Of a DNA stretch of 49,036 nucleotides, positions 27,001 to 33,000 are shown piece after piece. The stretch comes from a virus (lineage: Duplodnaviria > Heunggongvirae > Uroviricota > Caudoviricetes). Made by a program: the position numbers. The first letter of the stretch is position 1; every line of letters begins with the position of its first letter. The stretch lies in IMG/VR virus record IMGVR_UViG_2718217787_000014, one strand, 5' to 3'.

Positions 27001-30000
27001 CTTTAGTGGTCGCTTTTTGTGTCATATATAAGTCGTTTAAGTAAACCTGTCTGAACAGGTGCTCTGGTCGTGTTTGTCTTTGTTGGGTACAAATTGAGAA
27101 TATTTTTCATTAATTAATGAACCGCCCCGGGTTTCCTGGAGAGTGTTTTATCTGTGAACTCAGGCTGCCAGATCATCGTTTCCGATGGAAGCATAATAAG
27201 CTTTTTCTGCTTCTGCCGGAGGAGTATGGCCCAGCCTTCCCAGCAATCGTCGATTGTTATACCAGTCCACCCACGTTAGTGTGGCCAGTTCCACTTCTGC
27301 ACGGTTTTTCCAGCTCTTACGGTGTATTACCTCCGCTTTGTAAAGACCATTGATGCTCTCAGCCATCGCGTTGTCATACGAGTCGCCTGTACTCCCTGTT
27401 GATGCCAGTAATCCGGCTTCTTTTAGTCGCTCCGTATAGGCCAGTGACACATACTGAGAGCCTTTATCGCTGTGATGGATGGTGCCAGACGGACGACGGG
27501 CCCATTTACCCCGGAGAACACCGGCAAGTCCCATAACCGCCATGAGACGTGCCACTGTACATCTGGCCACCCTGATTCCTTCCCGTAACAACTGACGCCA
27601 GACTTTACGCACACCGTACACCTGATGATTTTCATCGTATACGCGCTGTATCTCTCTCTTCAGCCAGTCGTCGTGCTGCGCACGGGCACTGCGTTTATCC
27701 GGATGATGTCGCTGTTGCTGACAATGGTAATACGTTGACGGGGCAATATGCAGTTCGCTGCATACCGGTCCGACCCCGTACTGCTCACGCAGCTTATCCA
27801 GCAGTGGCATCATTTTTTCCAGAGGCGGTCGAACTCCGCCTTCGCAAAATAAGCGGAAGCCTGGCGAAGGATATCGTTACTGCGGCGCAGTTCACGATTT
27901 TCACGTTCCAGCTCTTTCAGACGCTGACGTTCAGCGCTGGTGAGCCCACCATCACCGCCCCCGGTATCCCGCTCATGCTGGCGAACCCAGACACGCAGAG
28001 TCTCCGGCGTACAGCCAATCTTTGGGGCAATGGAACAAATTGCCGCCCACTGTGAGTCATATTCATCCTGACTTTCCAGAACCATACGAATCGCCCGCTG
28101 ACGGACTTCGGGGGAAAAACGAGTATTTTTAGTCATCCTGTTTACCTCTTTCTCAGGGAGTTTAGTCTCCAGGATTTCCGGGGCGGTTCAATCCGCATAT
28201 TGATAATATATTGACAGGCATCATTGCTGTCTGTGAAAAATAAGTCTCTACAAACATATAAGGCCTTTTAGCCAGCGTCTTCTTTCAGGTCAGTCGCTGG
28301 CTCTTTTTTTATTATGCTGCCGGTGCATTTATCTCCAGCACCAGACTTTCTATCTCAACGCCATACGCTGCATTTTTTGTAACATCCGTCAGCGTCAGCG
28401 CATTCAGTCCCAGTGTCAGACTGTCTTTTATAACCTGGAATGCCGGGCCAGCCACTCCATTCAGTTTCGGAGTAACCGTGGCACTGCCGGCGGTGAACAC
28501 CAGCTCCAGCGTCTGCCAGTCGTTACCGTAATCGCCGAACTCCCCCAGCTTCGTGTTTCCGGCTTTCCTGTGATGCATCAGATTCACTCTGCCGTCAGTG
28601 GTCTGAGTGAAGTACGACATCAGGAACGGATTACCGGTACCCGTCATCGCCACACCATCAGGAACGGGAGCATCCGTATACAGATAAATCCCCAGCCCGA
28701 ACTGATTGTTGGTCAGTGCGCCTGACAGGCGGAACTTACAGTTCAGTCTGCCGCCCTGTGTCAGCAGGGTAATTGCGTCATCCACCGGATGCGTCAGGGA
28801 CCAGGTTTTATTGCTCTGCCTGGTGATCTTAAATACACCATCTGACAACTGAATTCCGCCATCCTTAATGCTCCAGCCCTGCGCAGCAGCCTCTCCGGCT
28901 GCCGGCAGCAGGGAGATTGTGCGAACGGACGTATCTGCAGACGGACCCGATGGCGTGTTGCCGCCGGGCGAGGGTTTGATTTCCGGTGCCTTACCACTGA
29001 TGAAGGCGGAGGTGCGCCCGGCTGCGTTCAGAATAGCGGTTGCCAGACGATCCGGAATAATGCTCCTGCGCGCCCATGAACTGAAATGTGTCGGGCGGTT
29101 TGATGATACCTGGTTTCCATTCGTTCTCGATGCCGCACCGTAATATCCTGATGCCGGAATATCCGGATCTTCTGCCGGCGCGTTAGTGGCGGTATTGACG
29201 CCGTTACCGTCTGTCATGAAGGGCACAAAATAAACGCCCTCACTCTCCCTGTTTTTATACCCGCCGTACACGGTGTCGTACTGGGTAGCGTATGTATTTT
29301 TCCAGTAATACGTCGTATCACCACAAATCCACGGCACATCTGCAGCACTGCCACCATGGCACTGCGCGTTAAACACGGAGAGGTCAGCACGAAACTGTGT
29401 CAGCATGGCTGTAAACAGCGCAGGTTGCTGTGCGTGGGTGGCGGCGCTCATGTCAAACTCTCCCTGCATCCAGCACACCGCCAGCAACACATTTTTCGGG
29501 TTCTTCTGTAATGCAGCTTTAGTGCGCGCAATCAGGTCCTGATATAACGGTTTACCCACACCCCAGCGTGCCGAATCCTGGCTGGCCCCCGTGTCCGCAC
29601 TGAATGTCCCCTCAGCGCCCTGGGTGAATGCAGAACCACCACGACAGCATGGTACCAGCAGGATCCCCGCGTTATTCGGGATATACGGAAGCAGTTTTTT
29701 GGCAATATGTAAGCCCTGGCCGACACAGCCGTACTGCCCTTTGCTCAGGTCTGCCTTCGGATGATTCAGCGTACTCATATCCTGCACATCATGCAGGCAG
29801 TGGTCGGCCGGAATGATGTCGTTATACGTACAACTCTCTCCACCCGGAGTTACCGTGCTGCGGCGCGCCAGCTGTTTAATGCGCGGATCCGGAGCATCGT
29901 AAGAATCCGGTAACGGAAGCCCTTCACCGTAGGCCATGCCGTTGGACTGTCCGGCAAGCACAACCACGTAGAACCAGTCCGGCTTAGATGAAGGGCCGAC

Positions 30001-33000
30001 CTGTGGATCTCCTTCAATAGCCACCGCCTGCATCAGTGTGTACGGCGTAATGGCAACCGGTCCGCCGTATGGCTGCCAGCCCTCTTTCAGTTTGTGTGTC
30101 AGCTTTTCCGCAAGGTCTGACGGCGACGCCGCCCTGACAACATCATAGTGTTTAAATGCCATGAATCCTCCCGGCCGGGATAATATTGTGAGTAAAATGA
30201 GGAGCGGGCTGAAGTCCGGAAGTTACAGGACAATGGCAGAAGAGAGACAACAGCCCGCAATACGAAAAAGGCCGCGCTATTGCGCAGAGTGATTACTGTC
30301 GGATATTATTCGCCAGCTGAAATATTACTTCACGTTTTGTTGTTTATTCCTTGCCGCCCGCGTCTCCCTGCGCGGGCTTTTTTTGTCCATAAGAAAGCCC
30401 CTCCGGAGAGGGGCTGGAGAGTGGCGCTATGTGCCATTGCATGGTGCCGGGTGCCTCCCGGTGAATTCAGTACCAGCACCTGAATCCGCGATTATCCCAT
30501 ATACCTACTCGCTGATTGCCCCTCCGCACAGGGGGATTCACCATGCCAGTTTCTTTTAACAAACTCCCCGCAAACCAGACAACAGTCAACCGCCTGAATT
30601 GTGAGACATTTAAAAAAAAGGCCCGCAAAAGCGAGCCAGGGAAAATAAGTGTGGCGCGTTGTACTGGATTCGAACCAGTGACCGATTGCTTAGAAGGCAA
30701 TTGCTCTGTCCGGCTGAGCTAACAACGCAGGATACAGATAATGGACCGCCTTCGGGGACCCGAACTCCGCGCAACCAGCTTCGAAAGCTGGCGCTCTTTC
30801 CTGATGAGCTAATGGCGGTATGTGATGGTGGCCCTTGCTGGATTTGAACCAGCGACCTGGCGATTATGAGTCGCTCGCTCTCACCACTGAGCTAAAGGGC
30901 TGGGTCAAAAAATAATAATCAGATGAAAATCAATAATCAAGCCCTTGCCTGGATACATATCTGTCTGGCGGGAAGCCATAATAGCGGTGAAATACAGAAA
31001 TAAAGTAGGACCAGCTTGAATAACCGCATTTTTCTGCTACAGCCTGTCCATATCCATGCCGGGAACATAACATATTGACAGCAACACGCATCCGCTCTTC
31101 CAGCAACAAGCGACTGAACATGTGCCCTTCATTTTTCAGTTTTATCTTTAACAAACTCTCACTCATATGCAGGCGTAACGCAATCGCACCAAGCGTCCAG
31201 CTTGCTGATATATCTGTCTGAATTATCGCCCTGACTTTGGCACTTATACTGGATAAACATCCACTTAAAAATAATAATATCCGTTCATCTGATTCAAACA
31301 GCGACAGGCATGCCATCATAAGAAACATATCCGTGGTATCTCCGGAAAATCTCTGGCTGGTAATTAAAGCCTCAGCCAACGCAGGGTTGTTGGGTTCCAG
31401 TGACAGATAAAGCGGAACGTCAGTCAGATGAGTTCTTGTCAGCTTATGCTGAATTTCCAGATATTGACTTACTATGGAATGGTTTATATCGAAAATTTTA
31501 ACTTTGCCATAATGCATAAGGAAAAGCGCCCTGATGCATTTGGTGGCCAGAACGACTGAGCCGGGCTTAAGTGACAACGTATCCTTTTCAAGAAAAATAT
31601 TAATTGGGGAGCAAACCATGATAACTGAACAGACAACAACCATTATAATTTTACTTTCATTAGCAATTGGTTAGTTCAATTATAGCCCCAAAAGGTAAAT
31701 TATCATCAACACATAAGCAAAGGACTGACAGGTGCCGCTAACACCCACCAGCCGCCCATTTACCACAAATAAAAAAGCCTTCAGGACTGAAGGCGTCTGT
31801 AACAACCGAACTGATAGTCTGCCAGACCCGCATAACCAGCTGGGTCAGTATTAACTGGCAGCGCTCGCGTGAAAGGTACGTATTCTGCGCAATCTCCCCG
31901 ACCGTCGCCGGTTCGGTGACGCTTAATTCATCAAACACAACTCTGGCGGTTTCTGTCATATCCTGCTGTTTCAGCATGTCTTTTTACCCTTTCCGGTTAA
32001 CGTGACACACCAATAACTCTTGTCGAAAAAGCCAGCAAGCTGAAAGACCTGTATTAATAACTACCAGCACATTTAACGCACTGCGCTACTTTGCGGGCAC
32101 AAAAAACCCGCTCAGAGGCGGGGTCAAGCTATGCGGCGAAATAACCACTCTTAACAGCATACCTGATTTTTTACGTACGTAAATGCTTTGCCGTGCATAT
32201 TTTTCATGCAAATGTCACGTCCTGCTATTTTTCAGTCTTATAAATTTAAAACCATAGAAAAAATCAATTATGTTTTAAAAATGGATAGGTAAAGAATAAC
32301 AAGTGACACAGATTCAAACCAAAATGGAAAAGGGTGGCAACCCACAAACGCCCACTCCACATCCATGACAATCCATACACAACACCAGATAACGTGGCAA
32401 ATAATACAAGTAAAGCACCACCTGAATAGTGATAAAAACCAAACAACAAAGCCGCCACAATTAATGCAACCAATGGAGACGTTACTTCTGATAGCCGTGA
32501 TTGAATATACCCTCTAAATAATGATTCCTCTGCCAGAGACACAAAAAACAAATTAGCCAATATAAACTCTGGCAACCACTCAGGAAAATGAATCTCTGGC
32601 TTTAATCCACCAAAAAAAACAGCCAAAAACAGGATAAGAGGAACAGAGAGCGACAGAGCCCCCCACTTCCACAAAGACACTTCTGATTTTACTTCTTTTT
32701 TAAACAAAGAAGATGTACACAGGACTAACAAAAATGGCACCAGCGCTTTATCAAAATTAAAATACATTGTATAGGGAGTACTTTGAGGGCCAACAGTAAC
32801 AGAATTTAGCACTACAGGATTGTGAAACCCTGGCCATAGATGGAAAAATAATGCTATGGCTGATAAAACTATGCCAACTTCATATATAGATTTAGCCCAG
32901 GCGTTATATTTCCAGTTGAACTTCAAAATAATAAAAAAAACGATTGTAGCAACAAAAAATAACACCGACCAATCAATAATATCATTAAGCACAGCCAGGA

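Follow-up and report, generated by a model that had tools for sequence, protein, structure and literature searches.

The interval between the tRNA trio and nanS-p in the lambda-like prophage Sp4 of Escherichia coli O157:H7 and its probably unoccupied toxin slot

Does a prophage that carries the tRNA genes and the sialate O-acetylesterase gene of Shiga toxin (Stx) phages, with no stx genes between them, derive from a toxin phage that has lost its toxin, or is it a phage of another kind? The question is raised by a viral sequence of 49,036 nucleotides (Caudoviricetes; IMG/VR record IMGVR_UViG_2718217787_000014), called the window throughout, in which three tRNA genes and the esterase gene nanS-p follow one another on the minus strand and are separated by a gap of 489 bp (30163-30651). 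A preliminary description of the locus had left the choice between a toxin-less relative and a remnant after stx loss. According to the analysis presented here, the region very probably belongs to the Q-dependent late operon of Sp4, a non-Stx lambdoid prophage, and forms its part next to the promoter, a modular chain of cargo in which the toxin slot is unoccupied. The parts of this region, including the small RNAs (sRNAs) encoded in the gap, have already been described.

The toxin slot in comparison with Stx2 phages

A 5.6-kb segment of the window (28100-33700) is 100% identical to positions 1176620-1182220 of strain Sakai, inside the annotated 'prophage Sp4, lambda-like phage', and equally to EDL933 and many other O157:H7 genomes; at least 80% of the segment is covered in 529 genomes, and it is invariant across the O157:H7 genomes listed. 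This match identifies the window as Sp4 of E. coli O157:H7 Sakai, called CP-933M in EDL933, and the late regulatory region of Sp4/CP-933M (ECs1084-ECs1088) shows no sequence difference from the window. Window positions (w) and Sakai positions (r) were converted by w = 1210320 - r, a relation checked on identical sequence; for example, Sakai 1179745-1179935 equals window 30385-30575 base for base.

Exactly three tRNA genes were found by ARAGORN in the window, all of them on the minus strand: one with a CAU anticodon, named ileZ1 in Sakai (30826-30901; Rfam score 66.3 bits), the tRNA-Arg(UCG) gene argN1 (30742-30818; 42.9 bits) and the tRNA-Arg(UCU) gene argO1 (30652-30728; 70.1 bits), the last two as in the Sakai annotation. 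The CAU tRNA is labelled Met by ARAGORN, from the anticodon alone, and is annotated as tRNA-Ile in Sakai, EDL933, UM146, VT2-Sakai and Nil3. The order of these genes, with the esterase gene behind them, had been described correctly, both in coordinates and in identities (ARAGORN, Rfam, Pfam and PDB); a literature search on the ileZ-argN-argO trio returned no matches. The trio is closed by a terminator-like hairpin found in the terminator scan (GGCTCGC-TTTT-GCGGGCC followed by a T8 tract; 30610-30637, minus strand), and the tRNA module including this hairpin extends over 294 bp, from 30904 to 30611.

The reference for this arrangement is the late region of Stx2a phages of the 933W type, such as Sp5 (VT2-Sakai), in which Q is followed by tRNA-Ile and two tRNA-Arg genes (ileZ-argN-argO), stx2A, stx2B and a 486-bp spacer with EcOnc27, an STnc100 RNA, and AsxR, and then by nanS-p (the yjhS-like gene of VT2-Sakai). 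The statement that tRNAs and esterase normally bracket stxAB is accordingly correct for Stx2 phages but does not extend to the two Stx1 phages examined, which have no tRNAs upstream of stx1. The upstream context of the Stx2 type is present in the window, namely a Q gene of family PF06530 together with the tRNA trio.

Searches for stx covered the whole window with blastn (word size 7) and tblastn, with stx2 queries from VT2-Sakai (for blastn, the Sp5 segment that starts where argO ends and stops 41 nt beyond stx2B) and stx1 queries from YYZ-2008. The sole blastn match of the stx2 cassette with E<0.05 was the 34-nt hairpin behind the tRNAs (30611-30644), which is shared at 91% identity with the tRNA-to-stx2A leader of Sp5 just downstream of argO, while the best tblastn E values in the window were 0.5 for Stx2A and Stx2B and 0.2 for Stx1A and Stx1B. 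The stx1 region, taken from the end of Q to nanS-p, matched the gap only through the non-coding spacer between stx1B and nanS-p. Alignment of the gap with stx1 and stx2 flanks, a check that the preliminary description had proposed, thus returned homology to non-coding flanks and no stx coding sequence, and its claim that the gap holds no toxin open reading frame (ORF) was upheld.

The content of the gap finds its counterpart in Sp5. In the orientation of transcription, gap positions 1-43 are the terminator hairpin also found after argO in Sp5, and positions 44-489 have their homologue in the spacer that separates stx2B from nanS-p in Stx2 phages. Against the Sp5 locus (L001), window 30904..30611 aligns with 2374-2668 at 92.9% identity and window 30608..30438 aligns with 4001-4182, and the 1,332 bp of Sp5 that comprise the stx2A leader, stx2AB and a 41-nt trailer map to a point in the window at most 2 nt wide (30609-30610). 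The position is an unoccupied site and not a scar. This cargo slot, delimited by the pairwise breakpoints against Sp5 and found with other cargo in clone D i14 (see below), has the terminator hairpin of the tRNAs on one side and a conserved sRNA module on the other, the place in which stx2AB sits in Stx2 phages. The slot being empty, Sp4 appears as a toxin-free relative and not as a decayed Stx phage, and it offers a clean reference 'empty site' that defines the stx2 cassette of Sp5 as the 1,332 bp between the tRNA terminator and the sRNA module.

Sp4 and Sp5 share the order of tRNA trio, hairpin, STnc100-family sRNA, convergent antisense sRNA, terminator-containing leader and nanS-p, with identities of 92.9% for the tRNAs with their hairpin, about 71% for the sRNA module and 91% for the nanS-p leader. 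Sp4 differs in the absence of the stx2AB segment, in a different Q, in other cargo, 2.3 kb long, that separates Q from the tRNAs, in an antisense partner of the EcOnc08 type instead of AsxR, and in an inverted lysis cassette. The 'toxin-less relative' of the preliminary description therefore stands in the sense that the late-region modules are homologous to those of Stx phages one by one, the prophage as a whole being the different, lambda-like Sp4.

Two small RNA genes in the gap

The gap had been said to hold only hairpin terminators, which proved incorrect: it contains two sRNA genes, both of them detected in Sakai. The gene on the minus strand (30385-30575) belongs to the STnc100 family (Rfam RF02076, 138 bits against a gathering score of 47, E 3.4e-32), matches the model over its full length (positions 1-206) and has been published as EcOnc05. 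It has its own terminator (30396-30415) and a conserved 5' edge, CACAATTCAG..GTTGACT, at 30584-30602, the final base of which varies between T and A across phages. Compared with the copy in Sp5 it is a divergent allele (about 71% identity) with a shorter central region, seen as deletions in the Rfam alignment. In Sp5 a gene of this family is located 75 nt past the end of stx2B, and in the two Stx1 phages examined 79 nt past that of stx1B. The gene on the plus strand (30219-30384), published as EcOnc21 and EcOnc08, is convergent with it and antisense to the nanS-p leader; it is delimited by published peaks (Tree et al. 2014, Table S2) and by the terminator scan, which places its terminator at 30356-30377 (8 pairs, 7 of them GC) with a T-tract that adjoins the 3' end of STnc100 at 30385. 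Altogether the gap holds three minus-strand and one plus-strand terminator-like hairpins, the third minus-strand one (CTGCGCAATAGCGCGG followed by CCTTTTT; 30272-30287, terminator scan) lying about 110 nt upstream of nanS-p and being conserved in Stx1 and Stx2 phages in the alignments.

The organisation of such regions was described by Tree et al. (2014, PMC4104026), according to whom the sequence behind PR' accommodates morons and encodes sRNAs in convergent orientation, as exemplified by EcOnc02/AsxR and EcOnc27 located 3' of stx2B in Sp5, with the same organisation in Sp3, Sp4, Sp9, Sp10, Sp11, Sp15 and Sp17. Their Table S2 lists for Sp4 EcOnc05 at Sakai 1179806-1179914 (+), with a northern band of about 222 nt, and EcOnc08 at 1179938-1180010 (-) and EcOnc21 at 1180016-1180101 (-), each with a band of about 271 nt; EcOnc42, a homologue of EcOnc08/21, is listed at 2924036-2924118 (+) in the Stx1 prophage Sp15 with a band of about 271 nt as well. 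EcOnc05 and EcOnc08/21 are bound by Hfq (Hfq-CRAC) and give discrete northern bands in Sakai (Tree et al. 2014, PMC4104026). Converted to the window, the Hfq peaks lie at 30406-30514 (-) for EcOnc05, 30310-30382 (+) for EcOnc08 and 30219-30304 (+) for EcOnc21, and the EcOnc05 northern probe maps to 30483-30517.

Further reports concern the STnc100 family as such. Eleven STnc100 copies were found to be transcribed in EDL933 (Neuhaus 2017), and the one called 'STnc100_2', whose coordinate 1267542 falls in CP-933M about 470 bp off the CP008957 coordinates, is likely the copy of the window, the offset presumably arising from an older assembly. The STnc100/EcOnc27 RNA downstream of stx2B has been discussed in the literature for clinical outcome and outer-membrane vesicles. 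In a 2026 preprint, Zhu, Shabalina and Storz describe PasD as an STnc100-related sRNA encoded just ahead of the sialate esterase gene, the position that the STnc100 gene has in the window, and report that less than 3% of the chromosomal copies of PasA, which flank the same esterase gene, adjoin toxin genes.

The antisense partner of STnc100 comes in two types, an AsxR/AgvB type and an EcOnc08 type. AsxR is encoded in the Sp5 locus at L001 4241-4293, immediately after STnc100 and on the opposite strand, and AgvB is found there in two other phages. EcOnc08/21 resembles these RNAs in being convergent with an STnc100-type sRNA at the PR' moron site, in a terminator that abuts the 3' end of that sRNA, and in binding Hfq, but it is not homologous to them and measures about 271 nt against 51-60 nt. 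AsxR or AgvB was considered as the identity of the plus-strand RNA and rejected, as a search admitting E values as high as 10 gave no match to RF02702 or RF02703 and the conserved 3' region of about 42 nt is lacking; side by side, the RNAs are alike only in the GC hairpin and the T-tract. EcOnc08 also has a G/U-rich stretch, ACGUUUUGUUGUUUAUUCC (30331-30349, plus strand), which is unpaired in the centroid fold and resembles the G/U-rich seed style of GcvB.

The RefSeq annotation of the gap contains neither sRNA gene. A partial pseudogene for a 'hypothetical protein' is annotated opposite STnc100 in EDL933 (L008 3645-3770, equivalent to window ~30431-30556, plus strand), UM146 and clone D i14 and is probably a spurious call over the unannotated RNA gene. 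Two sRNA genes known from experiment are thus missing from the standard annotation, and an RNA-family search is due before intergenic gaps in the late regions of prophages are called 'empty'.

In the direction of transcription, the minus strand leads from Q through AT-rich cargo, the tRNA module and the empty slot to the convergent sRNA pair, the terminator-containing leader and nanS-p, a chain of self-contained modules whose edges are sharp and recurrent. By analogy with established lambdoid biology, Q-modified RNA polymerase starting from PR' would read through the minus-strand hairpins at 30637-30620, 30415-30396 and 30287-30272 into nanS-p, which these three terminators would make dependent on antitermination by Q, and in the lysogen they would confine transcription to the tRNA and sRNA units. 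EcOnc05 and EcOnc08/21 would act in trans via Hfq, and EcOnc08/21 may in addition act in cis on the nanS-p leader. The tRNAs would decode AUA (the CAU tRNA once modified), AGA/AGG and CGA in codon-biased cargo such as psrA and pchA; the frequency of ATA, AGA, AGG and CGA codons per 1000 is 54.6 in psrA, 76.2 in pchA, 47.2 in Q and 78.1 in stx2A.

Distribution of the empty junction and the competing explanations

The junction was traced with a 181-bp probe (window 30520-30700). Among 5,426 complete E. coli genomes, at least 1,020 contain 80% or more of the probe, with up to nine places per genome in O157:H7. It is at least 99% identical in 786 records, which include UM146, an E. coli that is not Shiga toxin-producing (non-STEC), and isolates from pig, chicken and marine sediment. 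A literature search on Sp4 in O55:H7 CB9615 gave no matches.

Individual genomes illustrate how variable the neighbourhood of this junction is. The toxin-free locus of UM146 (L005) contains Q, a DNA methylase gene, the three tRNAs, sRNA modules, a degraded nanS-p reduced to a DUF1737 fragment, holin and lysozyme genes; two STnc100 modules stand in tandem after the tRNA trio (5125-5315 and 5593-5802), the second of which has the conserved edge at its start and an antisense module of the EcOnc08 type behind it. Phage Nil3 (AM051322), which comes from a cattle isolate of O157:H7, shares 96.5% identity with Sp5 along the 2,670 bp that lead from ninG via Q to the tRNAs, and there its 933W-type Q backbone is joined through the tRNA cluster to an Sp4-type spacer at 100% identity, without stx (L002 5637-6332); its tRNA-Arg(UCG) is a distinct variant, and Nil3 is therefore not a simple chimera of Sp5 and Sp4. 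In clone D i14, a uropathogenic E. coli, about 640 bp with a DUF3927 gene lie between the tRNAs and the conserved right-hand edge (L009 2780-3421), with breakpoints at window 30640 and 30616, a few nucleotides from the slot defined by Sp5. The same genome carries the anti-adapter gene iraM between the sRNA module and a nanS-p remnant (L009 3678-4013).

With the slot empty in Sp4, filled by stx2AB in Sp5 and by other cargo elsewhere, it is thus a variable cargo ('moron') position. The synteny of the tRNA trio with nanS-p is the common backbone of lambdoid prophages in thousands of E. coli genomes and marks neither an Stx phage nor a loss of stx, so scans should not flag it. The reading as a toxin-less relative is right but ordinary, and its practical value is small.

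If stx had been deleted imprecisely, degraded toxin or flanking sequence should be left in the gap. The synteny would agree with such a remnant, as would the length of the gap, which is close to the 486 bp of the Sp5 spacer. The suggestion is nevertheless refuted at the sensitivity of the blastn (word size 7) and tblastn searches, which found no stx1 or stx2 coding similarity; moreover, the tRNA hairpin and the full-length homologue of the Sp5 spacer account for the whole gap, both sRNA genes are intact (STnc100 over all 206 model positions), the junction is clean to within 2 nt, and the same junction is widespread, non-STEC genomes included. Nothing positive supports a 'remnant after stx loss', and an imprecise deletion can practically be dismissed. 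A loss that left no scar is a different matter: an ancestor of Sp4 may have carried stx in the slot, and a toxin-free prophage in the same cell may have displaced the toxin through homologous recombination or gene conversion across the shared tRNA and sRNA/nanS-p flanks. Homologous module copies are numerous in O157:H7, as the nine junction-probe places and the 11 STnc100 copies of EDL933 illustrate, and Nil3 demonstrates that a 933W-type Q backbone is able to carry the Sp4-type empty spacer. Furthermore, VT1-Sakai and related Stx1 phages, among them the Stx1 prophage of the same strain, match the right-hand part of the gap (positions 184-489, 306 nt) at 98.7% identity, and recent exchange with toxin phages must therefore have occurred in this spacer. 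Even so, the best full-length matches of the spacer among Stx-named phages reach only about 87% identity, Sp4 is unlike the Stx phages compared in the Q type, psrA cargo and lambda-like morphogenesis genes of its backbone, the empty allele recurs at 99% identity or more in the 786 records, non-STEC hosts among them, the O157:H7 genomes listed show no variation in this region, and no positive trace of a loss was found, which together make this history improbable.

The gap might also be a passive insulator, that is, a set of terminators that shields nanS-p from tRNA transcription, the Rfam and Hfq signals being functionless. The four terminator-like hairpins crowded into 489 bp would suit such a role, and so would the weak fold scores given below and the fact that EcOnc05 and EcOnc08/21 have no demonstrated function. 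Both RNAs, on the other hand, give discrete northern bands and reproducible Hfq crosslinks, the STnc100 module and its structure are conserved in Stx1, Stx2 and non-Stx prophages, and AsxR and AgvB, located at the same position, do have demonstrated functions, and an insulator of this kind is very improbable.

Several points count against the favoured reading, a non-Stx late operon with an unoccupied slot and two sRNA genes. The absence of a scar is no proof that stx was never present, the more so as the spacer was recently exchanged with Stx1 phages. No strong sigma-70 promoter for EcOnc05 was found by consensus scan of the minus strand of the gap; a conserved TTGAC(T/A) hexamer and a TGnTAAAA(G/A) motif can be recognised by eye, neither of which yields the published northern length of this RNA. 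The northern sizes (about 222 and 271 nt) exceed the Rfam match and the Hfq peaks, and fold stability is unremarkable, with z-scores of -1.85 (STnc100 module) and -0.81 (plus-strand RNA). Finally, the inverted lysis cassette means that the late operon is disrupted downstream, and Q-dependent expression of nanS-p in Sp4 is an assumption.

A more far-reaching proposal, which we regard as speculative and rather unlikely, is that the point between the argO terminator and 'TCACAATTCAG..GTTGAC' is a dedicated joint for the exchange of cargo (stx2AB, DUF3927, extra sRNA modules), with EcOnc08/21 gating nanS-p or the upstream cargo in cis and possibly CA-rich targets in trans through the stretch at 30331-30349.

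nanS-p, the upstream cargo and the rest of the prophage

The nanS-p gene (ECs1088; 28312-30162, minus strand), the product of which is annotated as a SASA family carbohydrate esterase, is a 616-aa (amino acid) ORF for a predicted prophage 9-O-acetyl-sialate esterase of three domains, recognised by Pfam and PDB matches. The Pfam domains DUF1737, SASA and DUF6645 lie at aa 3-49, 66-262 and 467-577, while aa 60-379 match the NanS/YjhS structure 3PT5 (E 2.5e-120) and aa 421-613 the C-terminal domain of NanS-p, 6YP6 (E 1.4e-29). The predicted protein thus has the N-terminal DUF1737, the SASA catalytic domain and the lectin-like C-terminal domain of a NanS-p, like its kin in 933W (Z1466) and phi24B (vb_24B_21) and the chromosomal NanS/YjhS. 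It is 54% identical to NanS-p of Sp5, keeps the GQSN motif, and is shorter than the 636-657 aa reported for Stx-phage alleles. In the literature, NanS-p alleles of EDL933 prophages gave active esterases, a general statement that is not specific to this allele, and nanS-p has been recorded in non-Stx prophages; a literature search on nanS-p in CP-933M returned no matches.

Upstream, the late operon is headed by the Q antiterminator gene (ECs1084; 33234-33614, minus strand), a Phage_antitermQ member (PF06530, E 8.7e-52) annotated as 'phage antiterminator' in Sakai. Between Q and the tRNAs, where Sp5 has only PR'-tR', Sp4 carries a gene for a CPBP/CAAX-type intramembrane protease (ECs1085; 32264-33088, minus strand; PF02517, E 1.4e-19; 36-39% GC), a small winged helix-turn-helix (wHTH) gene annotated in EDL933 as a frameshifted TrmB-family gene, and, directly upstream of the tRNAs, the AraC-family gene psrA (ecs1087; 30930-31643, minus strand; Pfam HTH_18 and HTH_AraC), named as a prophage-encoded regulator of type III secretion (PMC13502914). 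This cargo block (30930-33088) has 36-44% GC against 53-58% for the tRNAs, the gap and nanS-p.

Downstream, nanS-p is followed by a partial IS629, and the holin, endolysin, Rz and pchA genes beyond it lie on the opposite strand and are not co-oriented. The lysis cassette with pchA (24000-26955, plus strand; endolysin 24839-25372, Rz 25651-26175, pchA 26641-26955) is inverted relative to Q, tRNAs and nanS-p (28312-33614, minus strand) and is flanked by a partial IS629 and by ISEc8; the lysis genes are therefore beyond the reach of late transcription from PR'. Two copies of IS629 (IS3 family) occur in the window (27160-28136 and 1-1214), both of which contain an ALIL frameshift pseudoknot (27739-27855 and 817-933; 121.5 bits). 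In the copy just downstream of nanS-p, orfB is internally shortened and encodes 217 aa, compared with 296 aa for orfB of the copy at the beginning of the window.

Other RNA families were matched elsewhere in the prophage: an isrK-like sequence scored weakly at 35386-35467 (minus strand; 27.1 bits, gathering score 50), the sok antitoxin RNA of a hok/sok module was recognised at 35626-35800 (minus strand; 105.6 bits), and the DicF sRNA lies in the early region at 44537-44588 (plus strand; 76.9 bits).

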